A stretch of 64,000 nucleotides of DNA, from IMG/VR virus record IMGVR_UViG_3300045988_094428, positions 1 through 64,000 of that record. The stretch is one strand, 5' to 3'. The translations under genes and the position numbers were made by a program. Positions within the stretch are counted from its first letter, which is position 1. The number at the start of each line of letters is the position of its first letter. The notes beneath the pieces are model-generated. The model saw nothing but the letters and a program-made list of their open reading frames with translations, had not been told where the DNA came from and searched no databases. Shown piece after piece: positions 19,416 to 64,000 of this stretch. This DNA is from a virus.

Positions 19416-19416
19416 T

Positions 19417-20046: not shown

Positions 20047-20173
20047 CGACCGTAAAGATGAACAAAATGGAGCATACGGTGTTACAAAACCGTCTCGGAG
20101 TGATTGTATCACAAGGGGATTTAACGGAATATATGCTCGATGCGTGGTTCGCAAAACCTAAATTGCAAATATG

Positions 20174-20540: not shown

Positions 20541-20564
20541 TATTTATGAATAGGAGATGGTTGC

Positions 20565-21095
20565 ATGAAGAAACTGCTAGGAGCTATCATTGCTTTGCTT
20601 ACAACATTTGTGATAATTTGCGCTGTGGCAGTTCCGTCAAAAGCGGCAGATTTTAGTGACAAGTTTGAATTATATGAATCGTGGAATAACAATCTAAAAG
20701 TATATACAAGAGAAGTGAGTGAGGAACTTGATGTTCCGTATTCTGCGTTAGTTGCTATTATCTATCACGAGTCAAGATTTAAGAACGATGTTGGCACAAG
20801 CTATATTGGCCTAATGCAAGTTGGATGTACGTCAGATATTTTGAATTTTCTTTCAAATAATGGACTAAAAACATCTAAGAAAGGTTTGTATAACCCAGAG
20901 ACAAACATTAGAGCTGGTGCATTGATTCTTAGATACGCAATGGATAAAGCCACAAATATGGAAGATGCGTTCTATATTTATACTTGCGGCGAGGGTGCTG
21001 TAAAAAAGCGAAAGGCGAACGGTCAGAAGAAAAATAAAGCTACTATTGAAATTACAGAGCTTTATTACGAATATTCTGAATACTTTGCTGAATAG
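20565..21095 (+). CDS. Lytic transglycosylase (SLT domain) with signal peptide. The TAG at 21093-21095 is followed by 60 stop-free, protein-like codons to TGA 21276-21278, so a read-through product 20565-21278 is possible.
   Basis: IIYHESRFKNDVGTSYIGLMQV (catalytic E-S, GLMQ motif); N-terminal hydrophobic leader. Extension GKSDYRQFLLDELNGVQSELDETNGLLQ... is coiled-coil-like. Confidence 0.55.
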   Translation: MKKLLGAIIALLTTFVIICAVAVPSKAADFSDKFELYESWNNNLKVYTREVSEELDVPYSALVAIIYHESRFKNDVGTSYIGLMQVGCTSDILNFLSNNGLKTSKKGLYNPETNIRAGALILRYAMDKATNMEDAFYIYTCGEGAVKKRKANGQKKNKATIEITELYYEYSEYFAE

Positions 21096-36374: not shown

Positions 36375-37974
36375 TATAGGTAGTAAATTTTAGGAGGTTT
36401 GACATGAAACTAACAGAGTGTCAGGCCAGCACAGACTATACGAAATACTGGCTATCACCATACACCAATTCACAATATCCAGATTTTAAGACACCTTATC
36501 TAAAGATAAAAGAGGATTCAGCGAAGGATGTAAAAGTCGATGATATTGTTTATTGGGTAGAAAGAAGTCCTAGCGCAGCGATTGAGAGAAAAATATCTGT
36601 GCAGTGTGGGATTATCGTAGACGTATATCCAGACTGTTATGTTGCTAATCATCTTGCAGTTGCCGAATATATCACGTTCAGACTATATGACGAAAAGACG
36701 GAAAAGTTGTTTACAGATACCGCATCTTGGCGTGAGTATTTTCAGAATGTATCTTGGAGAAAATATCCGTCTAAAAAGGAACTGTCCGACAGTAGACATC
36801 TGTTTACTTTCAATCGGAAACCGCTGTATGAACTTATTGGTGGTAAACCTCCGAATTTGAAAGATATTGATGCTATCAAGGCGGCGTACAAATCTGGTAT
36901 TATTTGTAAGAGAAATGATGTAGTCGGATATGCGTCTTGCCCATATAGTGAGATTGATAAGGGCAGTTGGAAGCCGATTTTGAAGAGTGATTACGAGTCT
37001 GACAACACAACTCTTTCTAAGAGTCTTACATTCGCAACGTATGACGATGCAGTAAGATTAAAAGACTGTATTGAGCATGAATATGACTGGGTTTCTGGTT
37101 TAACCGATGAACAGTACACGCTTCTTGAAATGGACAAGGCTTTAAATAAACTTGTCCGTGACGGTATGTTGGAATCTGATGCGCGTAGAATTGCCTACTT
37201 TATGTTAAAGCAAAAGAAGTTAGTAGATATTGAGTTTCGCACTCTTCACGGCAAATTCCAATGGAGGAGCTACGACAATAAAAAGTGGAACAATGTAAAT
37301 CCTGAGAATATCCCACTTATCGAAGATGAGGTGTAGTTATGACCCATGTAACCGATGCTGAACGCTATCTGGCAGAATTAAAAAGTGCAATGGATTACTA
37401 CGGTAATATGCTCGATAAGCAGCATGGCAGTAACCATGACGCATACGTTAAGTATGATGTTGCACGATGTCAGTATAACGCCGCAAAAAGAATGATGGAA
37501 CTTATGAAGAGGTAAAATATGATTGTAGAGAAGAGTTTTATTGATGCTATCAAGTATGCGAAGAAGAACAGCGTTATGATTCGGCCAGAATATTGGAGTC
37601 TTTGGATTCAGTATGTTAAGTCCAATGGTGGGTTTTTCTGGTGCGACAAGAGTGGTAGAATTACTGAAGACCATGGCCTCGATAAGAGCGTAGTGGTCTG
37701 TGATAAGATTCTCGATGTTACCAGATGGGAATTTATGTGTGATGAGCTTGTTGACGATGCGGAGGGCAGCAATGACGGAAACCGAGTATAATCAGCTTGT
37801 TTTAGATTTGGCAAACGAATCGGAAGATACGCTGTATTTTATGTTTAGAAATTCTATTCGTCAGGTTAGATTCACAAGCCCTTACGAAAATGATTATCGG
37901 TACGTTGTTGCGCGACACAACGCAATTTGTGAGGCGTTTAAGAAAAAGACTGGACATAACATTTTGGAGGACTT

Positions 37975-43227: not shown

Positions 43228-45185
43228 TTAGTTCTTGCGTATTTTGGGTCTACACAATTTTTGGTTTTTCACCGGCTGTTATCGCGTTCCTCGCGTCAAA
43301 ACCTTCGAAGTGGTACGGAGTCGCATTTATTGTCTGGTTTATTCTATTGCTGATTAGAGTATCGCCTACCGGGTCACAGATTCCTCAGTATAGAGCCTTT
43401 TGTAAATATAGATTGCATTGCCCTAATGAACTTCTCCCTAAGATGAAGTATGCACAGATTAAACAGTTGTTATCTGTCAAAGAACTTCGTGCAGATTTTG
43501 ACTATGTTAGCTGTAATTACTATGAAGATAGATTTGTGTACGATGATTATTATGACTGGTCTTGTAAAGATATGAGACATAATTTTGTAATTTGTCATAT
43601 TGCTAGTAAAAACAATAACTATGTCGTTTTAAACCCAGCGACATATTTTGATTACTTCGCAATGTGCTTGACTGTTAGTAAGGGTTTGAAAAGTCTGTGT
43701 GCAACAGAAACGGTCGATGCACAGTTAAAAAATCTAAGAGATATTAGGGAAGTTGTACGCGAAGTGCAGGATAGAGAAGTAGCAAAGATGCAAAATATTG
43801 CATCAGAAAATCTTGAAATCGAGAATCGTATTATTGGCGATAGAAAGGTTAAGATAAAACAAAAATGAGTTACGATATTGTTGTCACAAAGGTAAATGAG
43901 CTTTTGGAAAAGTTTGTTGGTGGCGAGATTTTCTTTGACCAGCTTGACGATTCTATCAGAGCGAGTAAAGAGATTCTTGCAATGCTTGACCACGATGTTA
44001 AGATAATGTATCCGCACGACAAATATAAGTATGTTGTTACCGGTAAAACCGGAATTGCATATTTCAATTATGGTTTTACTACAGACCTGATTGTTCCGGG
44101 CGGCTTGCGTAAATCTAACACAAAGTTAGACCTTTCCGAATATGTAAAGTCCGGTGAGAATTACGTACTTATTGATGATTCTTACTTTATGGGGCGCACA
44201 GAGGCAGTTATTCGGAAAGCACTCAATGAGTGCAGTGCTAATTTAGCCGGAACACTCGTTTTCTATGATGGTTGTATCGAGAAGCGTTCTTGGGTCACTT
44301 CTATGTATCGTTACTACGATAATTATGACGTTCTTGGGAACAGATTGGAGAAATAGTTATGAAGATTAAGGTTGAATTTACTGTCGAAAATAGCATGGAC
44401 GCGGCGCAGATTGACGAGAATCTGCAAAAGGCTATTGCCGCTGGGGTTACTGAAACGACTGTCGCAGGACAGATTCGTGATGAGTTTAAGCAAATGCTCA
44501 TGGGACAGATGTGGGGCAACGATATTAACGGTAAACCTGTTGTTGCAGATATTGTCGGTGTTGAGGTATTTGCAAATTCTAATGATACTTCCGTATTTTC
44601 TGAATGGCACAAGGAGGATTAAATGGGCGAGTGGTATATTGTTCGTGGTAATATGGATGATGGCTGTCGTAAGTACACCACAAAAGTTATCGTGTATGCC
44701 GAGACTGTAAACGAAGCAAAGTCTAAGGCAAAAAAGCATTTGGAGACTGATGCAGATTGCCTGTTTACTCCTGCTGACGTAAGCCGCCTTGATAAGAATA
44801 AGGTATACTAATTATGGAAGATTTTGATATTAGCAAAATCACTATGAGTAAGGTGCATCTTGATGAATATAAGGTAAATCCATATTCAGAAGAACTTACT
44901 TATACGCTCGTCAATGGTGATGGTGATGATATGGGCGGCAGTAGAGTATTGCGCTTTACCGATGATGGCACATGGTCATTATGTAATAAGGACGCGGCTA
45001 TCGTCCGTAACCATGTCTTTTTAGAGCCTTGGAATGGTGATAGGATTCTTAGTGCTATTTTTTACGATGAGCATATCGCCGCAGTAAAGATTCACGATGG
45101 CTGGATTCCTCTTAGTGAATGGGGCAATTCGTGCGTCTGCTTCAGAATGGGTGTTGAATACGCCAAAAACAACTAATAGTTGTAA

Positions 45186-49257: not shown

Positions 49258-51271
49258 GAGGTATCATTAAGATATGAAAAAGAGTCCTTGTGCCCTTTTA
49301 TACTATGTAGACAGAACAAAAAAGTTTACGCTTGATAGATGCTATGCAATCCACTTGCTAAAACTTGGTTATACAATTAGTGTTTATCGTCAAGCTATTC
49401 GTGGAGACAGTCTTATCGAATGGTGGAGCGAATATTTGCCAAGACGGACAAGACTATATAGAGGTCGGCAATACGAAGCAATGGATGCGAACACGATTAT
49501 CGGTTCATACTGGGATAAACACCAAAATCACTATATTCAGGGTCATATGCCAGCTACAAAAGAAGTGAAATATCTAAAGAATTATAGAGTGGAGTAATTA
49601 TGCAATACTATATTAACACAGTTCCTCTTAACACGGACGTCTGGTGTGTCGGGTTCAAATTTGGCAGAAACAAAATTACAGTAAACAGGCCACCCGTTCT
49701 TGGCAAAGTAAACAATCGCAATTGGAACGCTCGCTTTGTTCCGAATGATAAAAAGGGAAGTTTTTCTGCTAGTAATTATCTGTATTATGATAATTACAAT
49801 GAGGCTGTGACAAACTACAACTGGCTTATTAACAAATATGTACGGATGTTTAGTGGATTCATTGAAGATGTAAGTGCGCACTTTATTAAAAATGAAGATG
49901 GGGAGGTAATTTTTGGATGAATACGCCTATTATTAGCCCTTGGTTTTTCTATTTTGCTGGAATTGCAGATGGACTCGGAATTACTTTAATGGTTTTTGGG
50001 TGTATAGCAATTCTCTTTTCAGCCATTATCCTATCTGCTTCATTTAATGACGACGAGATAGATTTTGCAAAGAAATCTATCAAGGGTATCATTATCGGTG
50101 TTGTTATTGTTATACTCGGTGTTTTCTGTCCGTCAGAAGATACTTGTTATAAGATGGCACTTGCTAAATTTGCAACTCCGCAAAATATTCAAGCAGTTAC
50201 TAAGTATGCTGGTGATACCGCATCAAACGTCAGCGATAGCGTAAGCGATGCCATTAAGGATATTATGGATTATAGTGTTGACCGCATCTATGATATTCGT
50301 AATAATCAGAAGGTCGGTGACGCTAAATGAGTTATGAATTTCTTATGCACAATGTAATTCCGTTTTGTATGGGAGTATATATTGGTAACAAACTGCTTGA
50401 TGCGAAATTCATAGATGCTATATTTTGCGGTTGCGTACTTCTAGTTACTGCTGCACTTGCAGGAAAGGGAGCTATCTAATGAATATTTACACAATCTTGT
50501 GTGTAATTCTTGCATCATACAGTGGATATTTCTATTATCATAAGAAGTATGATGGTTTTGCGTTATCTTGGATTCTTGTTACGCTGATTATTTGGTTACA
50601 GGGAATTGGAGTAATCTAAATGGAAAATAATTCAGTTTGTGATTACCTTGTAAGACCCACTCAAAAACAACTTGCATTTATTGCTGACATTCAAGAATTT
50701 GTCGGTAAACAGTTTACCGGAGTAACAAAAGAGGATGCAAGAGCATATATTTCACAAAACATTGAGATGTATGAATTATTATCAATGGATAGCTGGGCAC
50801 TAGAAAATGGATACTTTTAAGGTGGTAATTTAAATGAAGTATAACTTTACAGTAAAAAGATGTAAATTGGATTTCAAATCACCATACGAAACCAAAAAGT
50901 TTTCTTCTGTTGTCAACAACTACGTGTGGACTTTTAGAGAATTTTGCGAATATGTTACATCGAATAATCTCTCGATGTATATTGTTAAAAGTTATTTTCA
51001 TCCATTCCACAAAGTTCCTTATCACGATTATCAGATTGGATTTACGGAAAAAGTTGGCGATAAGCGTTATTTCGTGCATGATATAACCGTTAATAAAATC
51101 ATTGGTGGCAAGATAGTTGACTTTAATTGGCGTAAGTTTGAAGATAAACTAATAAGTACGGAGTTCTTTAAATTATATAAGATTAAACGACAGAAACGTG
51201 GCAAAGAGGTAATCACCCACAACGTTGTCGGAATCTAAAAAATTAAAATAGAAATACATCGTTGTATACAA

Positions 51272-51305
51272 CACTATGGTAAAATTTACCATAGTGTTTT
51301 TTCGT
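51272..51305 (+). terminator. Rho-independent terminator
   Basis: CACTATGGTAAA-a-TTTACCATAGTG followed by TTTTTTCG. Confidence 0.7.
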
Positions 51306-51312
51306 AAAGTGC

Positions 51313-51341
51313 TTGACAAATCGCGGTATTTTTGGTATAAT
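51313..51341 (+). promoter_or_regulatory. sigma70-like promoter
   Basis: gtgcTTGACAaatcgcggtatttttgGTATAAT. Confidence 0.6.
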
Positions 51342-51568
51342 ATAAGCACAAAGAAACGAAAGTAGTTTAGACTTGCCCAACAGGAGGGTTTTAAGATGAA
51401 ATTTGGAATTGGTGATATTGTTGCAATCATTGTGATTGTGCTGAAAGTGTTTGGTTTGGTCACTGTGTCGTGGACAGCAATTATCAGTTGGTGGCTTGTC
51501 TATTGCCTCGCAAGCTTTGTTTTGCTTTTTGTTACGCATCAATCTAAGTAAGTAGGAGGTAATACACG

Positions 51569-53035
51569 ATGAGTTTTAAAACGCAACAACTGCCCGGTAC
51601 AATACCTGTGGGTGGCTTTACTACACAAAAGTTGAGCGATGTTAAACATGGCATACCAGAGAAGTTTGAAGAGCGTTGTCTTGCAAGAGCTGTAAAAGAT
51701 GGCCGTTTCAACACGGCTATTGGCTTGGTCGAAGCGTTGTCTAATGCAGGATACGAGGCATACCTTGTCGGAGGCTGTGTTCGTGATATGCTTCGTTGTA
51801 AGACTCCAAAAGATTACGACATCACTACATCTGCAACACCAGAGCAGATTGAATCTGTATTCAATAATGAGCAGATTATCGAAACTGGCATCAAACACGG
51901 TACTGTTACGGTTATGATTGATGGCGTAGGTTATGAAATTACCACGTTCCGCATTGATGGTGACTACTCTGATGGTCGGCATCCAGACAGTGTAAAGTTT
52001 GCTAAAACCATTGAGGAAGATTTAGGCAGACGTGATTTTACTATTAACGCTATGGCGTATAATAAAGAACGCGGCTTTGTTGACCCTTATAATGGATTTT
52101 GGCATTTGCACTGCGAGACGATTCGTTGTGTCGGCAATCCTGTTCTTAGATTTCAAGAAGATGGTTTGCGTATTCTTCGTGCTATGCGTTTCGCTTGCGT
52201 ATTTGGTTATAATATTGACGAAGATACGGCTTATGGTATGCGCGTCTGTAAAAAGAAGTTGGAATGTGTATCTAAAGAGAGAATCCGCGCTGAACTTGAT
52301 AAGATGATTTCAACATATAAGTTCGGTGATATTATGATGAAGTTCAGCGATATCCTTGTAGAAATTATCCCAGAACTTGATAATCTAACAGGAAATATCT
52401 CATATACAGAGAAGCCGAGTCGCTTTGACCTTTATACAGACATTGCTCATGAATTTATCGAGGGTGAAAATCACCGCGATAATGTTACTTCCTATGCGTT
52501 ACTGTTCCGCAATCTCACAATGTTTGAAAGCGAAATTCGCAAGCATTTGACTTTGGAAGAAATTGCAACTGCGGCGAGTGCTGTTGCACACAACGTCATG
52601 AAAGACCTGAAGTTCGATAACACTACTATGGAGTCTGTATGTCGTATTATCAAACAGTCTTTTGAACCAGTTCCGATGAACAAGTATAAGATGCGTGTTC
52701 TTATCAATAAACTTGGTAAAGAAGATGCCGAGCGTATGCTCGACTTGATGTTGATGCAGAGCAATATTCCTGCTTGCTACTCATATAGTTGGGAGCAGTG
52801 TTATGATTCCATGAGTATTTTCTATGATGTTAAAGATGAAAACACGTTCACTGTTAAAGACCTTGACATTAACGGATATGACCTTATGGAAATTGGCTTT
52901 AGAGGTATTTACATCCGCAAGACTTTAAATCACCTTTTGCATCTATATTTCTTAGATTCAATCGAGAATAAACATGATGCCTTGTATGCAAAAGCATCCG
53001 AGTTATTTAATTTAAGTGGTGGCAGTATTTTATGA
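51569..53035 (+). CDS. cca: CCA-adding enzyme / tRNA nucleotidyltransferase
   Basis: Head-domain motif EAYLVGGCVRDMLRCKTPKDYDITT (GGxVRD...DxD) of class II CCA/poly(A) polymerases. Confidence 0.7.
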   Translation: MSFKTQQLPGTIPVGGFTTQKLSDVKHGIPEKFEERCLARAVKDGRFNTAIGLVEALSNAGYEAYLVGGCVRDMLRCKTPKDYDITTSATPEQIESVFNNEQIIETGIKHGTVTVMIDGVGYEITTFRIDGDYSDGRHPDSVKFAKTIEEDLGRRDFTINAMAYNKERGFVDPYNGFWHLHCETIRCVGNPVLRFQEDGLRILRAMRFACVFGYNIDEDTAYGMRVCKKKLECVSKERIRAELDKMISTYKFGDIMMKFSDILVEIIPELDNLTGNISYTEKPSRFDLYTDIAHEFIEGENHRDNVTSYALLFRNLTMFESEIRKHLTLEEIATAASAVAHNVMKDLKFDNTTMESVCRIIKQSFEPVPMNKYKMRVLINKLGKEDAERMLDLMLMQSNIPACYSYSWEQCYDSMSIFYDVKDENTFTVKDLDINGYDLMEIGFRGIYIRKTLNHLLHLYFLDSIENKHDALYAKASELFNLSGGSIL

Positions 53036-54112
53036 ATAATATCGTAAGAGAAGTTCTTCGTTATACAGTTCCAATGGATAGTGTGATTATCGAAAATTAC
53101 TTCGACAACGAAGTATATGATGCTAATAAAGGATTCAGAAAAGGTTGGCTCCCATTTTGCGAATACGATAGCAGAGCACCCAAACACGGTAATATGTATA
53201 CAATTATTGATAAAAAAGCAATTCGTATATGTATAACCGATTCCGATGGTGACTTGTCCAAGTACGGTTTTAAAGAGCGCGAGTCTTGTTTTGGCCCAAT
53301 GTCTAATAAACGCATTTGGGTAAATACGGAGGTATAATTGTGCCTAGAAGCTCCTTTGAATACGCTGTCACTGGATATATATTTGGCGACTATCTTGTGC
53401 ATGAAATGACGCTAACTGGCGCACCAATGGGGATGAAAGATATAGCTAAATTGCTAAATAGTAAAAAAGTAACTATTAGTAGGATAACATACCGGGATGC
53501 TAATTTCCCTAGCACGAAGTATCTAACAATTGACTATGACAGAACTCTTAAATGTGATAACACGCATTATAGTACAATGAATTTCTCGCTAACGGTTAGA
53601 AATCACAATGAGTTGTCGCTTAGAACGATAGTCAACCAAATGAGTCATCATGAAGTATTTATGCGATACTTCATGACAAGACTAAAACGCAACAAGACAG
53701 AGATTGTCGTATATCATGGTATATAATCTTTTAACGGAGGTAATAATGCCAATTCCTAACGAGTTTAATAAATTTGGAATACATCTATATGAATACACGA
53801 ACGATAAACATTACAAAAATCGCAGAACATTTACGTCTAAATTTAGTGATGTATGCGATATAATCAACCATGAAAAGGGCGATATTTTAGAGATTAAGTA
53901 CGATTTCGATTACATTTATGGCACATCATTATACATCAATTACTTGGCAAGTTCTGTGGATAAGTATAATAAACCATATATTGCAAATCGGAAGATAATT
54001 GTAGAAACCGCAGACTATATCCGTGAGTGCGACTTTATTCACGAAATGTATGTAAATGAAAGATTTTTGAAGTACTTCAAAGTATGCTTAAAACATAATG
54101 AACCAGAGATAA

Positions 54113-55171
54113 TTGTGTCACGTGAGGTGCTATGATATGGGATATTATGTATATAGATATATTCATCCTCTTTATCCGTGGTTGTACGTAGGAAAATGCA
54201 ACACAAATCTAAGAGAGCGGCTGAATAAGCATGAATCTGATTCAAGCGATAACATTGATAGAGCACATCTAAAAGAACTAAAGGAATCATCTGTGTACTT
54301 TATTGAACTCGATTCGGAAGAAGAGTCCGCATTGGTCGAACGCTATTTGATTAGCGAACATTCACCTACATTAAATATAAGATATGAGAATATTACTGAG
54401 TCTCAGAAACGCAGGGCAAAAGAATTGATTCAGAGAAGGAACCAATATAAGCCCGGATGGGTCAGATTTGAACGTGCGCGAGTTTACGAAAAGAGAATTA
54501 CACTTGGCAAACGATTTGTCAGAATGTCAGAGTATAGCCTTACGACCATCGAACAACGTGCATTTATGTATATTCTGATGAAAGCAAATGAGTTCAGGTA
54601 TAACGGTGATGCTGGTATGCTGACGATTCACTTTACTTTAGATGACTATTTTGCGCACGTTATTACGTCACGCGGGGGTCAATCTAACAGAAGCGCAATT
54701 AACGCACTGTTATCACTTTGTTGCAAAAATATTCCGATTGCTACGTATGCCGATAAAATATGCGTGTTGCACGGATTTATTGATAAGCCAGTGATAGGAG
54801 CAAACCGTCTTGTCGGTGTGCAGTTGAATCCGTTGTTTGCTAGCTATTGTAATATGAATAACAACATTGAATACGATGCTAATGTCGTTATGAAGTTCAC
54901 GCATAAATACTCCGCAAGACTGTACGAAATTATGTTGGCACACAAAAAGGATGGTATGCAAAAGTGGACGTATACCGAGTACGATGGTAATGAACTTGCC
55001 AGAATGATGGATACAACTAAACGCAGTGCAAATAAATCTATCAACGAAGCAATTAAGGAAATCAATGATGTTTCTGACATCAATATTGAACTCTCGCAGA
55101 ATATCATTCCTGCAACATTTGTATGCACTATGAAAAATCGGTTTGTTTTAGATAACTCGGAGGTTAAGTGA
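54113..55171 (+). CDS. GIY-YIG domain protein with long C-terminal extension
   Basis: YVYRYIHPLYPWLYVGKCNTNLRERLNKH matches GIY...YIG with the conserved Arg. Confidence 0.4.
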   Translation: MCHVRCYDMGYYVYRYIHPLYPWLYVGKCNTNLRERLNKHESDSSDNIDRAHLKELKESSVYFIELDSEEESALVERYLISEHSPTLNIRYENITESQKRRAKELIQRRNQYKPGWVRFERARVYEKRITLGKRFVRMSEYSLTTIEQRAFMYILMKANEFRYNGDAGMLTIHFTLDDYFAHVITSRGGQSNRSAINALLSLCCKNIPIATYADKICVLHGFIDKPVIGANRLVGVQLNPLFASYCNMNNNIEYDANVVMKFTHKYSARLYEIMLAHKKDGMQKWTYTEYDGNELARMMDTTKRSANKSINEAIKEINDVSDINIELSQNIIPATFVCTMKNRFVLDNSEVK

Positions 55172-55387
55172 GAATGGGTATCAGTTTTGAGGATTTGTGT
55201 GTTGATTTGCAGGAAAAGGCGGCTGATTATGGCGATACTCTGCCGCTTGAGGATTGGCCTATTGTATTCAATTTGAGTGGTGCACGATACCATCTAAGCC
55301 GTTATAGCGGTCGTGTATACTTCGACAAGGATGCAAAGGAGGTTGTTGTTAATATTGATAATTAACAAATTGTTCATAAACAACCCC

Positions 55388-55416
55388 TTGCTTTTCTGTT
55401 TCAAATATGGTATAAT
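55388..55416 (+). promoter_or_regulatory. sigma70-like promoter (weak -35 TTGCTT)
   Basis: caaccccTTGCTTttctgtttcaaataTGgTATAAT. Confidence 0.45.
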
Positions 55417-55767
55417 ATAAGTGTTCCAAGGGAATAGAAAGAGGTAGTTTAGATGGGTGAATGGTATATTGTGTACGGTGATATGATTCGGTTTTATATG
55501 ATTAAACCCAGCACATCAACTCCGACATCTATATGTGTTTTTGCATCTAATGAAGATGAGGCAATGGAAAAATCCAAACCGCTTGTTGGTACGGAAACAT
55601 TCGTCCCTAGAGTTGTTAAAAAATTAGATAAATCTAGGAGGTATGTAGTTCGTGTTATTTATTAAACAATGGTTATTCTTATTTTTGGTAATTGCAGTAG
55701 TTGTTTACTACTTTATCGAAAATAAGTTTTGAATAGATAAATCTAAAACAACATTAAAGGAGATTGT

Positions 55768-56622
55768 ATGAAGAAAATTATTTCTGGCGTTGTTGCCGCA
55801 GTTATCGCTCTGATTATTGTGGTGACTTGTGTTGTTCGTGTTCCTGTTGGCTATGTTGGAGTTGTTTATTCAGCAAAAGGTGTTGAGCAGACTACGATTT
55901 CTCAGGGTTGGCACTTTATGAGTCCTATGAAACACGTTGCCGACTTCCCAATCAGTCAGCAGCGAATCGTGTTTTCTAATCGTGCCGAAGATTATGGCAC
56001 AAAGGAACACGCAGACTGGCATATTGACGCACCGGCAAATGGCGGCACTATTGCCATTAACCTGACTGTTAATTATAGCTTCGATGCAAACCGTGTCGTT
56101 GAACTTTACACTAAGTTTAACGGAATGAACGGCGAGAGCCTGATGGAAAGCAAGATTCAGAACGATATTATTGCTTATGTCAAGGAAGTTACTCCTAAGT
56201 TTAGCGTAATGCAGATTTATTCCGATGACCGAGCTGGCGTTAATACTGCAATCACCGAATACCTGAACGAAAAGCTGTCTAATGAATATGGCATCAATGT
56301 TGCCTCTGCTCTGATTGTTGATGCACAGCCTGACGAGACTTTGATGCAGAAGATTCGTGCAAAGGAACAGGCAAAACAGGATGCAGAAATCGCTGAACTG
56401 AATAAGCAGACTGCACTTGCACAGGCTGAAACCGATAAGGTTAAAGCACAGGCTGAGGCCGATGTCAAGGTAATTGAAGCACAAGCTGAAGCAGAATCTA
56501 ACCGAATTATTTCTGAATCTATCACTGATAATCTGATTAAGATGAAGGAAGCTGAAGCACGTCTGAAGCACGGTTGGATTACCGTACAGGGTGCCGATAC
56601 AGTCGTTACCAAGGGTGAGTAA
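55768..56622 (+). CDS. SPFH/band-7 (prohibitin/stomatin-like) membrane protein
   Basis: N-terminal TM helix, SPFH-like core, C-terminal Ala/Glu/Gln-rich coiled coil; second SPFH protein in the window. Confidence 0.55.
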   Translation: MKKIISGVVAAVIALIIVVTCVVRVPVGYVGVVYSAKGVEQTTISQGWHFMSPMKHVADFPISQQRIVFSNRAEDYGTKEHADWHIDAPANGGTIAINLTVNYSFDANRVVELYTKFNGMNGESLMESKIQNDIIAYVKEVTPKFSVMQIYSDDRAGVNTAITEYLNEKLSNEYGINVASALIVDAQPDETLMQKIRAKEQAKQDAEIAELNKQTALAQAETDKVKAQAEADVKVIEAQAEAESNRIISESITDNLIKMKEAEARLKHGWITVQGADTVVTKGE

Positions 56623-56943
56623 ATAAGAATTACGACAAAGATTGGAGCCTATAAAATGAAACGAATGTTTGGCATGATGCCCAGTAGTGAAGTTGAATTG
56701 CGTGAAAGTTACAAAGATAATTTTGGACTGACCGTAAGAATTGAAGCTGGCAAGCGTGGATGGACTATCATGTGAGCAGATGGTGGTTCTGATTATAAGG
56801 ATGTCGATGCAGAATCCGCCATTGAAAATTTTAATGAAGCATTTGAGACTGCGCAGAATAGGATTGGAAAACTCGTAAAAGTGCGTTGTTGCGGTGAATG
56901 CTAATAGGTCTTATAAAATTCTTAATAACCTAAAGCAAAAAAG

Positions 56944-56975
56944 ATAGGGATAGTAACATTGGTTACTATCCCTAT
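56944..56975. terminator. Bidirectional terminator between convergent + and - strand transcription units
   Basis: Perfect 14-bp stem ATAGGGATAGTAAC-attg-GTTACTATCCCTAT flanked by A-rich/T-rich tracts. Confidence 0.7.
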
Positions 56976-56979
56976 TATA

Positions 56980-57297
56980 TTATGCTTGTTTATTAGCAGT
57001 TATTTGTTTAATTATTGCCACAATCTTATCGTAGCCTAACTGTGAACCCATAATGACACAGATACCTTCAAAAATAATCCACATGATACTCTGTGGAGTA
57101 AATGCGATATTTGCCATTACAAAATACGCACAAGTACCAACTACACCAACAAGTCCACCAGTGCCAAGAGCAACAGCGGATGTGTTGTAGTTAATCTTTA
57201 GACCAGTAAGAATCTTCTTTAGGAACTCAACAACGATTGTAGTCAGAGTACCAAAAGCAAGAAGCAAAGTACAAAACAGTTCAATAGTCATATTCAT
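56980..57297 (-). CDS. Holin
   Basis: 105 aa, two to three TM segments, immediately upstream (in transcription order) of the endolysin. Confidence 0.55.
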   Translation of the reverse strand: MNMTIELFCTLLLAFGTLTTIVVEFLKKILTGLKINYNTSAVALGTGGLVGVVGTCAYFVMANIAFTPQSIMWIIFEGICVIMGSQLGYDKIVAIIKQITANKQA

Positions 57298-57308
57298 TTC
57301 TCCTTAGA

Positions 57309-57944
57309 TTATCTAACAAACATTGCTTTCCAAGTGTTCATACCGACGATTCCATCAGCAGTTAAACCGTGTGCTTTCTGGAACTCTTTTACCTTGTTTT
57401 CAGTATTCTTTCCGAATTGACCGTCAATAGGTAAACCGAGTTTCTTTTGAACAAACTTTACAGCAGACGTCTTGCCTACATTTGTTCCACGTTTAATTAT
57501 TGGCATTAAATCAGTTCTATAATATTCGTAACGTCCAGCTTGCGCACATAGCCAGAAAGTTCTATTCTGTCTAGTGTCTACATGAACAAAGTTGGTGTTA
57601 CCATAGTAGTAAACACCAACACCGTTAATAATAGTCTGAGCAAAATAAGCAATCTCAACTGCTGATACACCAGAAATCTGAATATCAGCGGCCATACCTT
57701 TTACGTGATATGAGCCGGAAGTACCGCCGACCCTACGATTATGCTCTGGTGTACGATATGCAGAATTTATTATAACTGGTTTGCCAAAATGGTCACGAAT
57801 TTTTTGTAAAACTTCAACAAGAGTCAAATCAATAAGAACGGAATCAGAGCCATCCTTACAAGCGAACTCTTTTACAGTAAAGTTTGTAGACAATTTGACA
57901 TTACCTTGATTTTTTACACTATAAGTTTTAACCATAATTATCAC
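57309..57944 (-). CDS. Endolysin: peptidase M15 (L-Ala-D-Glu/D-Ala-D-Ala peptidase-like) with C-terminal PG_binding_1 domain
   Basis: SAYRTPEHNRRVGGTSGSYHVKGMAADIQ (zinc peptidase M15 H..D/H motif) and C-terminal VKFVQKKLGLPIDGQFGKNTENKVKEFQKAHGLTADGIVG peptidoglycan-binding repeat. Confidence 0.75.
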   Translation of the reverse strand: MIIMVKTYSVKNQGNVKLSTNFTVKEFACKDGSDSVLIDLTLVEVLQKIRDHFGKPVIINSAYRTPEHNRRVGGTSGSYHVKGMAADIQISGVSAVEIAYFAQTIINGVGVYYYGNTNFVHVDTRQNRTFWLCAQAGRYEYYRTDLMPIIKRGTNVGKTSAVKFVQKKLGLPIDGQFGKNTENKVKEFQKAHGLTADGIVGMNTWKAMFVR

Positions 57945-58052
57945 CTTGTATTCTATTCCATTTACCTCGATAAATTGTGGTATTCACAACTTTTGCTAAA
58001 TTGTAGTATTCACTAAATTTTTGAGACCCTATCACCCAAGGCTTCCTATTGT

Positions 58053-60512
58053 TTAATAATTAAATTCTCTGTCTAAGCCTGCACCAAAACGAATGATATT
58101 TATTTTTTTTGATATTGGTCTTATTACAACAACATCCCACGCTTGTTCTGTTGCATCACCTTCTGTTCTTGACGGAGAAACAAGTCCATAAGTTGTATCA
58201 TAACCAGTAATAGCTCTGATTGAATCAGAATTAACATCTGTTTGTTCAAATTTTCCACACGTTGAAGCAATAGATAACCATGGTTCTGTAAAAGCATAGT
58301 CGCAATGACTATGACCGAATAACTGAATAAATTTACCACCACTTGAAATGAACGTAGAAATAGCATTGTTAATTGCTTCAGACCTTGCTTCTGACGGAAT
58401 CTTGTTGCTAAAATTCTGATTCTTTTGTGTAGACATATGCTCACAAAGAACCACAGTCTTATCTGTGTTCAGCGCTGTATCTATAAACCATGTCTTTGTA
58501 TCTTCTGAGATTACATAAGCATTCAAATAATTTGTATTGATAAATACTACCCTTATGTTCAACTCTTTATAATCAACATAGAAATCAGTTCCATTAGTGG
58601 CTTTGTTTACGATTGCATTTTTAGGGGTCGCAGACATAAATGCTCTGTAAGTCTGCCCTATATCGAATTTAGGACTTGGGTCATAATTCGTATCATGGTT
58701 CCCAACAGCAAACAAGTACGGGATTCCGATACTGTTGAAAGCTGATAACATATAGTCTGCTTGTGATAAAGATGTTTCAATATTACTACTTCCATTTATG
58801 TTATCACCAAGATTTGCAATGAAATCGCAATGAATTTTCTTAGCAAAATACTTTATATTTTTAATGGTTTCGTCAAAATTCTGAAATACTATTGAAGTAG
58901 GTGCATAATGAATATCTGTGATTTTCGGAAACACAAGACAAGGCTCTGTCATGCAATTTCTAACAGAAGCGATAGTTTCGTTCATTTCCGAAACAAATTT
59001 TTCTGATAAATCGTTTTCCAGCTTAGTTATTCTTTTTTCGTGGTCTGACAGCACGGAATCATATACCTTAACTGTTATGCCAAGTTCTTCAAGTGTGATA
59101 GTCGAAGATGTATCTGTTTTTGAGCAAGCGATGCAAATATAAGAATCTACAGATGGAATCCAATCCATAGGTTCTGTTTCCCATCCACCCCGCAAAACAT
59201 TCGTGTACTTTCCATCAGCAAGTGTCCATGCACTTCTTGCAAACTGTTGCCCTAAAATAGTTTCAATATGAACCTTTGTATTTGCTTTTATGAATAGCAA
59301 TTCTGAAAAAGATATTCTTGTCGTTGAACTAACTTTAATTGGTTTTGCTCCACCGGTTTGTCTTGACCATGATACTCTTGCCCAATCTGTAAAAAGCCTC
59401 GACCCATCTTCAAGAAGCATTTTTAACACATCTACATCGTTTCTTAGCGCAGATGTTTTTTCTACAGTGTCAGCAACAGTACCTTGTAAATGCGCATCCT
59501 TTGCCCAATTTGCTGAAATCTTTCTGTTACTATTTACATTAAGTGCAACATAATAACAATCTCTCTTGTTGTTAGTAACTGTTCTTTTATTACCATATGT
59601 TGAATCAAGTGCAAAGTAGTCGATGTATTTTTTGTCTGCATCATATAGTTGGTATTGGTTAGTCGGAAGTGCTTCGCCATCATCTGAATAGATAGTAAAT
59701 ATAGTTCCTTTTGGAATCTCAAATGGTACAAGCTCCGTGCTATTAATTGTACTTTTGTAAAATCCAACAATACCAGAAATTTTAGTTATATCTTCTTTTA
59801 GCTGACTTTCCGCATCGGTAGCTCTATCAATTTCACCCTACAAGTCCTTTCTAATAGAAGTAACTTTAGACGATTCTGCTTTACCAGCCAATTTATCTCC
59901 GACAGTTTTTGCATCAGCGGCATAACCAGAAATTGTAAGTGTTGTGTCTGTCTTTAACGATGCGGCACTTTTAGCGGCAGCATCAGCAGCCGCTTGAGCC
60001 GCTTTTGATGCTGCAAGTGTATCATTATAATATTTGGCAGCGATAGCATTAAAACTATCAATAGCTGCTTGAAGTGCATTTTCATCTTCGATAGGTTCGC
60101 CAGTATCAAGTAATCCTTCCTCAACCTAAAAAGTAGCTGGTTTTGTATGAAGAATATATTGTGATACGTTAGTCATATCATTTGTATCATATATTGATAC
60201 GTCATAAGTTACAGTGCCTTTAGCACTTGTGACATTAGAATCAAGAACCCAGTCGAACAGAACGAATTGCTCGTTACCTTCTGTAATAACCTCTCTGCTA
60301 TTACAGAAAAACTGGTCATAACGATTCAGAGAATTGACATATCTGACAGTAAGAATCTTATCGGTAATATCAATACCATCAATCACTGATGGAATCTTAA
60401 AGGTAATATATCTTGAATCATTATCATTTACAACAGCCAATTCTTCTGTCGCGCTTGGAACGATTGTTCTATTTACAATTTCAAAAATATAAGTTCCGTT
60501 CAAGCTATTCAA
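58053..60512 (-). CDS. Tail-fibre-like protein (~819 codons) with a C-terminal metallophosphoesterase domain, containing two in-frame TAG codons (plus 60126-60128 and 59838-59840)
   Basis: A single continuous frame. ...HTKPATF-TAG-VEEGLLDTGEPIEDENALQAAIDSFNAIAAKYYNDTLAASKAAQAAADAAAK... and ...SIRKDL-TAG-GEIDRATDAESQLKEDI... The downstream segments have no start codon of their own. C-terminal calcineurin-like motifs GDNINGSS and FAVGNHDTNYD. RBS AGGAGG + TTG start at 60512. Confidence 0.6.
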
Positions 60513-61002
60513 CCTCCTAAATTAAAAATAAGGGTGTAGCATTAAGCTACACCCAACTTATTAAATGTACTTATCGTCAGTAATATACTCGTACTCTTCT
60601 GGAGTAATCCAGCCCTTTTTGGTTACATTATAGACCATCTTTTTAGTCCAGAAACCAGAATCGTAGTAATACTCAGCTTTCTTTCCGTGTGCGGACAGTT
60701 CCATATCGTCCATATATTGTACTTCCATATCTTCCATATCTTCCATACCGCCCATACTAGCGGTTTTCTCTTCTTCGACAGGTAGTTCAATATCACTCAT
60801 AACAGCAATATACTCAATCAAAGATTGTTGATTGCTAATCTGAGCATTGCGATGTTCGACCATCTTCTCCTCGTGAGGATTCATAATCGCCTTTTGAAAA
60901 ATCATAATTCTACCTCCATAAATCATTGTAGAATTTATTCATTCGCTATATCAATCTATATGAGTTGCCATGCTCCGCATGAGCAACCCAACAGCTATAG
61001 CA

Positions 61003-61956
61003 CTAATCTATTTTTTCTTTGGTTCTACGACCTTTTACAACAAGTTTAACCATTTTACGTAATTTACGCTTTTCATTCTTAACATTATCTCCAAGGATTG
61101 ACATAACGACCTTGCCGGTTTCGGTAAGTCTGAACTTAAATCCCAAGAATGGAATACCCTTACCAACTCTATAGAGTTTAGTTTTCTTAGGATGCAATTC
61201 AAGACCAATTTTAGCTAGTTCTTCTTGAATCTCGTGCATACACTTGATTAAGTAATTTCTATCGTGATGAATAAGAATAAAGTCATCCATATAACGAATA
61301 TAATACTTAATGTGCATACGTTCTTTAATCTTATGGTCAAGTTTATCCAGAACAGAAATGCCAGCAATCTGAACAACTTGGCTACCGGGATTATACCCGG
61401 TATCACCAAGATATTGTTCATTTAATATTCTACAGACTCTATCTGCATATTCTACTGGTAATTTCTCTCTGAACAAGGCATTTGTTGTATCATGCCGCAT
61501 ATTATCATAATAGTGCTTAATGTCGCATTGCAGAACCCAAGCATCAAGACCGTTCTTTCTGTAGCATCTTTGCAGATGACATTTTAAACGGCCTCTAGCG
61601 AAATCAGTTCCTTTACCCTTTTGACAAGCACAATTATCATAAATAAAACTTCGAGTCATTAACGGATACACTAAATTATCATTAAGACTGCGTTGATATA
61701 CCCTGTCTCTGAAAGCTATGCTCACAGCAATTCTTTCTTTCGGATGAGTGATATGAACAGTCTTAGTTGGACGTGGTTGGTATGTTCCGTTTGCAAGTTG
61801 TTCTTCTAGTTTAAGAACCTATTCAATTCCATGAATATAGAAATTAGCGACAGATTCTTTCCAGCTAACATTTTTCTTGCACTTATATAAAGAATCAAGT
61901 AGGTGCTCGAAGTCTAGGACATTTACTACTTGATTCGATTCCTAATTATTATTCAT
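61003..61956 (-). CDS. Diversity-generating-retroelement reverse transcriptase with two in-frame TAG codons (plus 61942-61944 and 61819-61821)
   Basis: MNNN-TAG-ESNQVVNVLDFEHLLDSLYKCKKN...YIHGIE-TAG-VLKLEEQLANGTYQPRPTKTVHITHPKERIAVSIAFRDRVYQRSL...CACQKGKGTDFA...VLQCDIKHYYDNMRHD...GSQVVQIAGISVL...YIRYMDDFILI. All RT motifs 1-7 present, including YMDD and the DGR-type SQ motif. Frame verified across both TAGs. Confidence 0.8.
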
Positions 61957-62150
61957 TAAACTTTGACACAACAACTAAACTAAGCCGTATATAGGCGTAC
62001 TGGCTCGAAAACCAACGCCATCGGCATAGAGTGGTTTAGTTATCTTTTATAATCTTCCAAGCAAGATAACAGGGTTATAACCTCCTTGTGTTTGAAGTCG
62101 AGAACCTAGCTTGCGCTATACGTAAGATTTTTTATTAGGGACTTTCAAAT

Positions 62151-62270
62151 ACAATCGGGCGAGAACCTATTCGAGTTGCTCGCGTTGTTGTTGTTGACGT
62201 TACCGCTAGAGTTGACATTCCACGTATTATTAGCATTGCCACGATTAGCAGACCGCAAGCGCACATTCTG
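62151..62270 (-). repeat. DGR template repeat (TR)
   Basis: 120-nt near-identical copy of the 3' end of the target gene; differs from VR at 15 positions, all adenines in TR on the coding (minus) strand. Confidence 0.85.
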
Positions 62271-62301
62271 AATCAGGTTATAACCCAAATATATATAAAA
62301 A

Positions 62302-62745
62302 TTAAGTTTCGTCTTTTTCTTTAGATTCTTTAAGGAGATGTCCATACCGAGTACAATCGCTGTGATTCCACTTACGAATTAAACCTCTGACTGAAATAAC
62401 AGATTCAGACCAATACTTAATACGGCTGGCTCTTAGATGATATAACGTCTATGCCAAGTATATAAGGTTTAATAGTGTATTACACGCTTTTGCCGCATCT
62501 CTTTGGAGCTTATCGCGCTCCTGCCATCTTCCAACATTATCGTCAACTCTAATGTTGTTTGCATCCATAAGATTATTAAAGATGGTCAATGCGGAATCTT
62601 GGATTTTTAGTTTGACCGATTCATCATAATCAGGAATAAATACATTCTTGTTAGATGTGATTCTTAAAGTGTAGACTGCAAGCTCTCTGGCTTGCATAAC
62701 GACTTCTAGTCTATTTTCTTTTCTTTGACCAGCCGGAACAGACAT
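62302..62745 (-). CDS. avd: DGR accessory variability determinant (Avd-like four-helix-bundle protein), 98 codons + in-frame TAG (plus 62449-62451) + 49 codons to TAA
   Basis: Position between VR and TR typical of avd. Small basic helical protein. The annotated 98-aa ORF is short for Avd and the frame stays open for 49 more codons after the TAG. Confidence 0.5.
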
Positions 62746-62885
62746 TGTGCGGCCTCCTTAATTTAATTTTTATATATTTGCTTTTATTGTTAATATTCGG
62801 ACAACAGTATTTCTCTAAGGAAATTACTGCTTTTAATCTAAATAGAAAATCTTGCACGAAAAGTATTCGTGCAAGATTACTAGGA

Positions 62886-64000
62886 TTAGCAGATGACACA
62901 AGCGGGCGAGAACCTATGCGAGTAGCTCGCGTTGTAGCTGCCGACGTTACCGCTAGAGTAGACAATCCACGCATTACTAGCATAGCCACGAAAAGCAGAC
63001 CGCAAGCGCACATACTGTGCGCTAGAAGTGTTCTCAACAGCATAGGTAATCATCTGAGGATAAGTACCCCACTGAGCCAACGGAGTAGTAGTACCAGCAA
63101 CACGCTTCCAGTATTCCCAAGCGTCTCCCTCGCCAGATTTCTGAGGATTCACATAAATCTGCTCAAGTGCTGGCAAGAATACCTTATCGTAGGTAACGTC
63201 AGAAGTATTACCAGCAATATCGTCATTTACGGTATTTGGGTAGGTAACAATCTTAACAGGCTTGATAGCATCTAAAAGGTCGGCTGGCATACCAGTCAAG
63301 AAACCGTCATGGGATGCCAACTCGTCAGGTGCAATATCCCACTCATCCTGTGCTACCCACCAGTTACCCTTAGTAGCAGAGCTATTTAGGTACTGACGTA
63401 GCGCGGATGTTTTCCACCTGTTCCATCCATAAGCCATTTCCTGACAGGAGTTCAGGTTGCCGTTACGCTTATCATGCTTCATAGTACCAAGATTCGTACC
63501 AGATGCGGTAAATGTCGGAGTAATGTTGTCTTCAACCTTAGTCTTACCGTCTGCCGCCCAAGTATAGACACGCCAGTTAGCTTTTGGTTTGTCAGGTGCT
63601 CCATAGCAACCGGAAATACGTCCACCAGCAGGAACTGGCTTAGTAAGAGTGAAGCTGACAATATCACCAGCCGCAACATTGTTACCCCACTTAGTTTCTA
63701 TCGTAAAATAGTAAGTACCAGCGGCTAATTCGGTATCACACTTCAAAAATGCTCTCTGGTGACTAAACTGTACACCAAACGGATGCGCATAGTGTGCCTG
63801 AATAGTCATACCCGGTACGGTTTCGCCATCCTGAAGTGAGTAATTGCCGAAATGAGCAACGTGCCAATTATAGTTCGCATATTCCTTATTTGAACTAGCG
63901 GTATCAATCCACTTATCCTTAAACTGGTCGCCAAAATCATAAACATATTCTGCATAACCAGCACGAACTAGAGTAGCAACTTCTGCCCAGTTACCAGACA
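62886..64000 (-). CDS. DGR target protein (tail fibre / receptor-binding protein), partial at window edge, with C-terminal variable region
   Basis: Open frame runs from the window edge to 62886. C-terminal ...GYASNAWIVYSSGNVGSYNASYSHRFSPACVIC encoded by the VR. Confidence 0.7.
   Translation of the reverse strand, partial: SGNWAEVATLVRAGYAEYVYDFGDQFKDKWIDTASSNKEYANYNWHVAHFGNYSLQDGETVPGMTIQAHYAHPFGVQFSHQRAFLKCDTELAAGTYYFTIETKWGNNVAAGDIVSFTLTKPVPAGGRISGCYGAPDKPKANWRVYTWAADGKTKVEDNITPTFTASGTNLGTMKHDKRNGNLNSCQEMAYGWNRWKTSALRQYLNSSATKGNWWVAQDEWDIAPDELASHDGFLTGMPADLLDAIKPVKIVTYPNTVNDDIAGNTSDVTYDKVFLPALEQIYVNPQKSGEGDAWEYWKRVAGTTTPLAQWGTYPQMITYAVENTSSAQYVRLRSAFRGYASNAWIVYSSGNVGSYNASYSHRFSPACVIC
62898..63017 (-). 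repeat. DGR variable repeat (VR) at the 3' end of the target gene
   Basis: Aligns to TR 62151-62270 with 15 mismatches, every one at a TR adenine (coding strand). Confidence 0.85.

Follow-up and report, generated by a model that had tools for sequence, protein, structure and literature searches.

This work describes a predicted tail-fibre gene with an enzymatic tip, located in a 64,000-nucleotide (nt) stretch of viral DNA (IMG/VR record IMGVR_UViG_3300045988_094428, positions 1 to 64,000), referred to here as the window. The gene lies on the minus strand, in an order shared by the window and four related contigs: tail genes, the target gene of a diversity-generating retroelement (DGR), Avd, a reverse transcriptase (RT), a small gene, XkdX, the fibre, an endolysin (Peptidase_M15/PG_binding_1), and a small holin-like gene. 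XkdX genes mark the end of the tail module in phages of Gram-positive bacteria, and fibres usually follow them. Among the relatives, L001 (106.6 kb; Logan SRR9333193_389) and L002 (114 kb; ENA ERZ27286933 k141_313474) are related phage contigs that were retrieved via homologous proteins; L055 and L056, from two other samples, carry the same metallophosphoesterase-tipped allele at 97.5% nt identity.

The frame at 58053-60512 comprises 820 codons and contains two internal stops, both TAG; translation shows no in-frame TAA or TGA inside the gene, which terminates in TAA at 58053-58055. Read with the standard code, it breaks into an open reading frame (ORF) of 128 amino acids (aa), a startless stretch of 95 codons, and a 458-aa ORF, and the public database entry for the present allele is a 455-aa C-terminal piece only. 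The first-pass annotation, a model's reading of the letters alone, had placed the gene at 58053-60512. The end at 58053 holds, and the start moves to 60503. The second TTG, at 60503, is the likely start (giving a product of 816 aa) because AGGAGG sits 9 nt upstream of it, the TTG at 60512 abuts this Shine-Dalgarno sequence, and the gene calls in all four related contigs (L001, L002, L055, and L056) begin at the second TTG. All residue strings quoted in that annotation were recovered in the translation: AAKYYNDTLAASKAAQAAADAAAK at aa 155-178, NLGDN at aa 564-568, GNHDT at aa 601-605, and GHSH at aa 730-733.

Judged from its sequence and predicted fold, the C terminus of the product is a true metallophosphoesterase, whose active site is both complete and conserved. 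Pfam assigns PF00149 (Metallophos) at 43.5 bits (cut-off, 21.5; E = 6.4e-11) to aa 531-737 of the 819-residue translation from 60512, and the motif set of the superfamily (DxH, GD, GNH[D/E], H, and GHxH) is complete at D530/H532, D567, N602/H603/D604, H689, and H731/H733. Motif conservation was read from alignments of 21 (A3), 60 (A8), and 100 (A7) diverse homologues and from a further alignment (A1). In PHROGs, the enzyme domain corresponds to phrog_7158, which has no known function; NCBIfam gave no family match to the protein. The assignment made in the first pass from the GD, GNHD, and GHSH motifs was therefore sound, although motif I (TDIHY, aa 529-533) and motif IV (CEHM, His689) had been missed.

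Domain search and structure prediction of the C terminus, among the checks proposed at that stage, both indicated the metallophosphoesterase beta-alpha-beta-alpha-beta sandwich. The AlphaFold model of the C-terminal module has a predicted local distance difference test (pLDDT) score of 75, and Foldseek matched it at E = 2.5e-8 to 1.9e-7 to 2xmo (Lmo2642), 1qfc, 1ute (purple acid phosphatase), 2zo9, and 3d03 (GpdQ). A single-sequence search of PDB sequences returned noise only. When a 21-sequence family profile was compared to solved structures, the glycerophosphodiesterase GpdQ scored best (E = 1.5e-7), followed by Mre11, the ADPRibase-like 2nxf, SMPDL3A, purple acid phosphatases, and Lmo2642. 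The predicted chemistry, fixed by homology, is binuclear-metal phosphoester hydrolysis, most like that of phosphodiesterases. Two narrower memberships were considered and rejected: only the core motifs align to the Mre11/SbcD nucleases (profile positions 30-129), and the genes on either side, XkdX and an endolysin, do not include one resembling SbcC; Pfam gave no match in the protein to GDPD (PF03009), the domain of the GDPD-type teichoicases.

Ahead of the enzyme, the protein is modular. The AlphaFold model of aa 1-125 (pLDDT 60) matched BppU N-terminal, baseplate, and tailspike proteins in BFVD (probability, 1.0; template modeling score, 0.5-0.6), and the domain is, with low confidence, similar to BppU-type baseplate anchors; Pfam BppU_N was not detected in the fibre sequence. 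The same residues are 90-99% identical among ∼25 fibres with other tips. A free-standing 135-aa protein in the tail module of two relatives (L001 5986-6393 and L002 5979-6386) is 41% identical to fibre aa 1-130 and may represent a second adaptor or docking-site paralogue; its equivalent in the present phage falls past the window end at 64000. The Ala-rich coiled-coil features reported in the first pass for the N-terminal part were located at aa 127-240, where AAKYYNDTLAASKAAQAAADAAAK also lies. The shaft motif TLTISGYAADAKTVGDKL is also seen in P0034 and P0036-P0038, unrelated proteins of the metallophosphoesterase family. Past LKEDL/I (∼aa 240) the relatives diverge entirely, which marks the start of the allele-specific part. 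Within this part, the beta-sandwich at aa 363-482 was matched by Foldseek to the CBM32 structure 4a3z (probability, 0.95) and is possibly a CBM32-like carbohydrate-binding domain. It precedes the phosphoesterase domain in P0036-P0040 as well, indicating that the two travel together.

Identification of the protein as a tail-fibre-type protein, also put forward in the first pass, is well supported by its position at the end of the tail module and by the enzymatic tips swapped onto its conserved N terminus and, with low confidence, by the BppU-like N-terminal model. Over aa 1-240, identity is 85-95% among some 30 proteins, whose C termini fall into at least six domain types. The swapped tips include BNR/sialidase-like domains (PF13088, 8 clusters), SGNH/GDSL esterases (4 clusters), a pectinesterase, a pectate-lyase-3 beta-helix, and an endonuclease/exonuclease/phosphatase (EEP) domain; two other, unrelated metallophosphoesterase alleles (P0010 and P0025) occur on the shared N terminus. 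As read from these sequences, the pattern is one of classic cassette exchange of receptor-destroying tips, as is typical for fibres of the receptor-binding or depolymerase kind.

The enzyme domain belongs to a large family. A HMMER search of 1.84 billion representatives retrieved 1,169 homologous clusters, counted at 50% identity, of which 145 reached E ≤ 1e-30. For the majority of the 150 top-scoring clusters, the domain forms the C terminus of a 500- to 1,700-aa protein or lies close to it. Among 60 diverse members sampled, 58 contained Metallophos, 12 contained Big_2 domains, and 43 matched phrog_7158, and ∼20 matches of sampled members fell in PHROG families that carry a tail-fibre, tail-protein, or virion-structural-protein annotation. 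Homologues on IMG/VR contigs adjoin endolysins, tail proteins, or the integrase end of prophages. Similar multidomain proteins in BFVD come from uncultured Siphoviridae and Myoviridae, where they are labelled "Metallophosphatase domain protein," and include Bacillus phage G gp352. Coordinates of the gene, its modules, and its neighbours are collected in Table 1.

Table 1. Features of the fibre gene and of the flanking region (window coordinates; aa numbering from the TTG at 60503)
Feature	Position	Strand	Remarks
Complete fibre gene	58053..60503	-	816 codons + TAA, with TAG read as Gln; single frame
458-aa standard-code ORF	58053-59429	-	GTG start, 136 codons past the second TAG
N-terminal beta-sandwich, BppU-N-like	60129..60503	-	aa 1-125; putative baseplate attachment
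In-frame TAG, codon 126	60126..60128	-	CAG in L001, L055, and L056; GAA in L002
Ala-rich helical/coiled-coil shaft	59784..60125	-	aa 127-240; end of the module common to relatives
Conserved shaft motif TLTISGYAADAKTVGDKL	59889-59942	-	aa 188-205
In-frame TAG, codon 222	59838..59840	-	CAG in L001 and L002; TAG kept in L055 and L056
First variable beta-rich domain	59469..59783	-	aa 241-345; common to P0035
Short helix (aa 346-362) + beta-sandwich (aa 363-482)	59058..59468	-	AlphaFold model residues 1-120, mostly pLDDT 77-92
Helical linker	58944..59057	-	aa 483-520; helices at model residues 124-133 and 140-156
Calcineurin-type binuclear metallophosphoesterase domain (predicted)	58056..58943	-	aa 521-816
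Motif I, TDIHY (Asp530, His532)	58905..58919	-	Asp and His invariant in A1, A3, A7, and A8
Motif II, NLGDN (Asp567)	58800..58814	-	Gly-Asp invariant in A3, A7, and A8; one distant A1 member departs
Motif III, GNHDT (Asn602, His603)	58689..58703	-	Gly-Asn-His invariant in A1, A3, A7, and A8
Motif IV, LCEHM (His689)	58434..58448	-	His invariant in A1, A3, A7, and A8
Motif V, GHSHC (His731, His733)	58302..58316	-	Gly-His-x-His invariant in A3, A7, and A8; first His nearly so in A1
Subfamily C-terminal motif RFGAGLDREFNY	58056-58091	-	Ends the enzyme domain
Shine-Dalgarno sequence AGGAGG	60513..60518	-	9 nt before the TTG start; identical in four relatives
Terminator-like hairpin with T-run	60532..60554	-	9 pairs, 6 GC; between the XkdX-like gene and the fibre gene
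Upstream ORF	60561..60926	-	In relatives, a 59-aa gene, then an XkdX-family gene (aligned to 60564-60713)
DGR template repeat (TR)	62151-62270	-	120 nt; 15/15 mismatches between TR and variable repeat (VR) at TR adenines
Avd-like gene	62305-62745	-	In-frame TAG aligns with Gln in a relative
DGR target gene	62886 to beyond 63998	-	DUF6273 family; C-terminal VR at 62898-63017
Downstream endolysin	57309..57944	-	Peptidase_M15 + PG_binding_1 in relatives' orthologues
Small holin-like gene	56980-57297	-	Forms a lysis cassette with the endolysin, 3' of the fibre gene
Terminator-like hairpin	56944-56975		Ends the lysis unit

With regard to the in-frame stops, the first-pass annotation held that two TAG read-throughs were needed for full-length synthesis. 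This claim was not upheld: the phage lineage appears to read TAG as Gln, as indicated by the CAG codons of relatives and by TAG-to-Gln alignments in neighbouring genes, and the evidence points to both fibre TAGs being reassigned Gln codons (genetic code 15), neither leaky stops nor lesions. Codon 126 is a CAG/TAG polymorphism, and the TAG at codon 222 is maintained in three independent assemblies; a phrog_25888 match spans the TAG at codon 126. When relatives' proteins were aligned to the window under code 15, they crossed eight in-frame TAGs, six of which stood opposite Gln. The RT and Avd genes of the DGR hold four of these eight (three in the RT gene and one in the Avd-like gene), with Gln opposite in every case. 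The tail and DGR genes of L001 likewise contain 8 in-frame TAGs, 6 of them opposite Gln in L002. The ratio of nonsynonymous to synonymous substitution rates (dN/dS) relative to these phages is 0.02-0.10 for aa 1-125 and 0.12-0.13 for the startless segment between the TAGs.

As a terminator, TAG is rare: it ends 5 of 73 plus-strand ORFs of at least 80 aa, and TGA follows within 0-6 codons in 4 of the 5. None of the 34 called genes in L002 ends in TAG, and in-frame TAGs are absent from its called genes across the corresponding 22 kb. In the early region of the window, three plus-strand ORFs (36404-37342, 43865-44362, and 20348-20659) carry a terminal TAG with an in-frame TGA 0-1 codons on; these tandems look like back-up stops, as would fit TAG terminators that are phased out or read through late. 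If TAG is decoded as Gln, the predicted peptides include PATFQVEEGLLDTGEPIEDENALQ and DLQGEIDR.

One result stands against recoding: neither ARAGORN (default settings, introns allowed, and low threshold) nor Rfam (gathering and E-value thresholds) detected a credible tRNA(CUA) suppressor in the window, which has 15 tRNA genes, and the relatives' flanks yielded none either. Low-threshold ARAGORN calls of "tRNA-Pyl/Stop" lay inside genes and were dismissed as noise. The suppressor tRNA must be encoded in the part of the genome beyond the window (∼45 kb) or come from elsewhere; the 732-aa protein encoded at 13-2211, taken as a lead to that part, had no record. Gut phages using code 15 (TAG to Gln) are known, and their recoded codons are found mainly in late genes (bioRxiv 10.1101/2021.08.26.457843; PMC9523058; PMC10607447). 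The present phage is like these in that its in-frame TAGs cluster in late genes (tail, DGR, and fibre), where they replace the Gln of relatives, but it differs in that the usual suppressor tRNA was not found in the 64-kb window and in its low TAG density. The lack of in-frame TAGs in the called genes of so close a relative as L002 suggests an early or partial stage of recoding.

The phage is an uncultured gut phage with a genome of ∼105-115 kb; stool samples ERZ27954701 and ERR11570411 contain it. Neither megablast of positions 50000-64000 nor tblastn of the full protein against GenBank phages gave a useful match, and therefore no cultured relative carries the present fibre. The primase-helicase is closest to those of Enterocloster bolteae phages with ∼100-kb genomes (45-50% identity over 36-40% of the query), and the endolysin is closest to those of Faecalibacterium phages (41% identity). 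Because these two genes are nearest to phages of such hosts, the host is likely a member of the Clostridia with a Gram-positive-type wall.

Relatives of the enzyme domain are also found in cellular genomes, where their neighbours offer a clue to the substrate. A one-genome-per-species scan with a 6-sequence alignment returned 34 loci related to the phage domain. The closer loci (33-38% identity) sit mainly on short contigs of metagenome-assembled genomes, whose assignments are Eubacterium, Oscillospiraceae, Vescimonas, and, with less certainty, Bacteroidales. The more distant group, 22 loci at 21-27% identity, lies on chromosomes of Roseburia, Butyrivibrio, Acetatifactor, further Lachnospiraceae, Oscillospiraceae, Erysipelotrichaceae, and the isolate Paenibacillus soyae, among others. 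End to end, including the C-terminal RFGAGxDR motif, the phage domain aligns with the Roseburia (E = 1e-29) and Paenibacillus (2e-20) proteins at 25-27% identity; by-eye comparison suggests that the beta-rich region before the enzyme is common to these two proteins as well.

A GDPD domain is present at 21 of the 22 cellular Bacillota loci and is fused or directly downstream in ∼17; a TagD-like cytidylyltransferase lies within a few kb at most of the 22, and a LicD phosphotransferase is close by at 12. GT2 glycosyltransferases, sugar epimerases, and Glf also occur nearby. The resulting conserved unit, in which a beta-sandwich, a metallophosphoesterase, and GDPD are fused or lie side by side, is exemplified by L014 7581-9674 and L026 7491-9622 and recurs at ∼20 others (L015-L035), in clusters where the TagD-like cytidylyltransferase is fused to a GFO/IDH/MocA oxidoreductase and accompanied by LicD and GT2. 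These clusters build glycopolymers with alditol-phosphate or other phosphodiester-linked units, and the unit itself looks like an enzyme pair, so far uncharacterised, that works in the metabolism of alditol-phosphate glycopolymers. The GDPD, TagD, and LicD context thus supports a subfamily acting on alditol-phosphate-type phosphodiesters. Flagellin glycan was considered as a substrate of the cellular homologues and set aside as a minor rival, as FliD was found at the Paenibacillus locus only, with no flagellin at the other loci.

Taken together, we consider the chance slightly better than even that the gene encodes a fibre whose tip is a phosphodiester depolymerase, with a wall or surface polymer of the host as the candidate substrate. 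Given a suppressor tRNA, the TAGs would be ordinary Gln codons, and a host using the standard code would produce fragments only. The BppU-like beta-sandwich (aa 1-125) would dock the protein on the baseplate and the Ala-rich coiled coil (aa 127-240) would form the shaft, followed by two beta domains, the second of which, possibly carbohydrate binding, would position the tip. The tip itself (aa 521-816) would be a binuclear metallophosphoesterase capable of catalysis; once the virion touches the cell, this enzyme would hydrolyse phosphodiester bonds of a phosphate-containing surface glycopolymer, such as a teichoic-acid-type poly(alditol phosphate) or a polysaccharide with phosphodiester-linked repeats or decorations. 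In this way, the virion would bind and then strip or tunnel through the polymer layer. The analysis itself shows an intact gene under code 15, a modular protein, a phosphoesterase fold with a conserved active site, a place in the tail module, and exchange of the tip with carbohydrate-active cassettes; that the protein is part of the virion, how it oligomerises, what it cleaves, and whether the TAGs have a role in timing are the parts of this scheme that we infer. A broader proposal, which we advance tentatively and with somewhat less than even confidence, is that the >1,100 clusters constitute a large, uncharacterised class of beta-sandwich-plus-metallophosphoesterase tail enzymes. These would be metal-dependent depolymerases of gut-Clostridia receptors that are teichoic-acid-like or phosphoglycans, captured from cellular metallophosphoesterase-GDPD enzymes of alditol-phosphate glycopolymer clusters, with the CAG-to-TAG change in the fibre tying its synthesis to a late suppressor tRNA.

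Several observations count against the depolymerase reading. Similarity to GpdQ is remote (∼12% identity), and Mre11/SbcD nucleases, acid phosphatases, and sphingomyelinase-like enzymes score near it. Because nucleases, phosphatases, and sphingomyelinase-like enzymes do nearly as well, the substrate class is not readable from homology. Model residues 390-424, a conserved insertion in the enzyme domain, are without modelled structure, and the pLDDT of the aa 1-125 model is of low confidence. Finally, the cellular metallophosphoesterase-GDPD homologues have no signal peptide or membrane anchor; the substrates of the cellular enzymes may thus be cytoplasmic, e.g., CDP-alcohols (CDP, cytidine diphosphate) or glycerophosphodiesters, and not wall polymers.

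The strongest of the alternatives, though an unlikely one, is that the fibre carries an active phosphoesterase whose substrate is something other than a teichoic-acid-type wall polymer: DNA or RNA of biofilm or mucus, lipoteichoic acid, phospholipid head groups, or phosphodiester decorations of flagellin or S-layer glycans. The structural matches to nucleases (Mre11/SbcD), to the cyclic-nucleotide phosphodiesterase Lmo2642, and to the sphingomyelinase-like SMPDL3A would all fit such a substrate, as would the EEP tip of the sister allele P0031, and the position of the Paenibacillus soyae homologue cluster next to fliD hints at a flagellin-glycosylation island. However, FliD or flagellin was seen at that one cellular locus only, the remaining swapped tips (sialidase-like, SGNH, pectinesterase, and pectate lyase) are directed at glycopolymers, and the recurrent cellular partners (GDPD, TagD-like, and LicD) act on alditol phosphates.

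Two further explanations are improbable, to about the same degree. Phage receptor-binding proteins sometimes keep enzyme folds without activity, and the domain could, on this precedent, be a catalytically dead metallophosphoesterase fold that serves as a binding module only. In the present family, however, the metal-ligand and catalytic residues are intact and are invariant in 100 homologues down to 24-55% identity with the first aligned member; a dead module is unlikely because such invariance among diverse homologues indicates selection for catalysis. Alternatively, the product could be a soluble late enzyme outside the virion, released at lysis, which aids lysis or blocks re-adsorption of progeny to debris. 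The fibre gene lies directly upstream of the endolysin and holin, a terminator-like hairpin parts it from the tail genes, and one homologue (L042) is located between an endolysin and an integrase. Set against this arrangement are the BppU-N-like N-terminal domain and the long coiled coil, the paralogy of the N-terminal domain to a tail-module protein, the matches of family N termini to tail-fibre or virion-structural-protein PHROGs, and the position after XkdX, where fibres of Gram-positive phages usually stand. Very improbable is a pseudogene with two nonsense mutations that yields only the 458-aa ORF as a free phosphoesterase: although standard-code gene callers output exactly the 58053-59429 fragment (P0001) and no suppressor tRNA was found in the window, all in-frame stops in the fibre and the relative-aligned neighbour genes are TAG and 6/8 replace Gln, codon 222 is kept as TAG in three assemblies while codon 126 is CAG/TAG polymorphic, dN/dS is ∼0.1 on either side of the TAGs, and the tail genes of L001 show the same TAG-for-Gln pattern.

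To our knowledge, the phage tail enzymes known to act on phosphate-linked wall polymers of Gram-positive bacteria are of two kinds only, the beta-helix of phi29 gp12 and GDPD. Virion glycerophosphodiesterases of the GDPD family (PF03009) are represented by a baseplate protein of Lactobacillus phage Ld17 and by enterococcal phage tail proteins, as cited in PMC10194240 from Cornelissen 2016. The present protein is similar in being a predicted phosphodiester-cleaving enzyme on the tail or baseplate of a Gram-positive phage, with teichoic acid as the proposed target, and its cellular homologues are physically paired with GDPD; it differs in its fold, a binuclear calcineurin-type sandwich rather than a TIM barrel. 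By analogy, it plausibly works like a GDPD-type tail teichoicase without belonging to the GDPD family. In a survey of 506 enterococcal phages, five tail-lysin types are given, including GDPD and pectinesterase, with no metallophosphoesterase among them (PMC10194240).

The pre-neck appendage protein gp12 of phi29 is a beta-helix tailspike for which degradation of wall teichoic acid is reported (Xiang 2009 and Myers 2015, cited in PMC6116005). Both it and the present protein would be tail appendages that bind and hydrolyse a wall polymer of the poly(glycerol phosphate) type. However, gp12 folds as a right-handed beta-helix and has an autocleaved chaperone, whereas the present protein combines beta-sandwiches and a metallophosphoesterase with a coiled-coil shaft and resembles gp12 in neither sequence nor fold. 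Compared to soluble members of its own superfamily, i.e., GpdQ of Enterobacter aerogenes (2dxl, 2zo9, and 3d03), Lmo2642 (2xmo), Rv0805, and the purple acid phosphatases, the tip has the same fold and the same five motifs, at an identity of only ∼11-14%. The phage subfamily differs from GpdQ in its own N-terminal helix and beta-sandwich, in a conserved insertion of ∼35 residues (aa 751-785), in the C-terminal RFGAGxDREF motif, and in its fusion to a fibre, whereas GpdQ is a soluble hexamer. With the lactococcal-type BppU and other modular fibres, the protein shares a conserved N-terminal anchor and shaft, an exchangeable C-terminal specificity module, and a gene that comes last in the tail operon, ahead of the lysis genes; the resemblance to BppU itself is structural only and comes from a low-confidence model. 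By sequence and predicted fold, the protein is a member of both the calcineurin-like superfamily and the modular fibre class. A literature search for tail fibres or depolymerases of metallophosphoesterase or calcineurin-like type yielded nothing beyond unrelated, nonstructural phage phosphoesterases.

Other features of the window were recorded alongside the fibre gene. A complete DGR lies directly upstream of it (60814-63998, minus strand). Given this complete DGR and the swapped tips, the phage pairs a hypervariable tail protein with a cassette-swapped enzymatic fibre. On the plus strand, a tRNA array at 14605-20247 comprises 13-15 genes, two of which are long at 88 nt (Thr-UGU, 19328-19415; Lys-UUU, 19631-19718). 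The plus-strand tRNA gene at 18819-18932 (Rfam, 44.6 bits) has an insertion of ∼40 nt within the anticodon stem and is detected by ARAGORN in intron mode only, with a wrong label; excising the insertion leaves a perfect 5-bp stem and the loop AUUAUAA, i.e., tRNA-Ile(UAU), and by this anticodon it was rejected as a CUA suppressor. A tRNA-like sequence at 17138-17209 (plus strand; Rfam, 41.1 bits), not called by ARAGORN, has a noncanonical anticodon loop of 6 or 8 nt and was likewise rejected, as it contains no CUA. A 488-aa homologue of PolyA_pol/CCA-adding enzymes is encoded at 51569-53035 (plus strand), consistent with heavy investment by the phage in its own tRNA set.

For annotation, the present gene is an example of how the standard code cuts recoded fibres into meaningless fragments, and it provides a clean within-population case of CAG/TAG interchange. 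For phage biology, the predicted product is presumably a virion-borne phosphodiesterase with a new catalytic fold, drawn from a large uncharacterised family. If true, this would be a third, unrelated catalytic fold for tail attack on phosphate-linked wall polymers. Uncultured gut phages that infect Clostridia, about whose receptors hardly anything is known, carry this fold in abundance. Wall glycopolymers of Lachnospiraceae and Oscillospiraceae could be studied with the domain as a probe or tool, and host-range prediction could use it as a marker.

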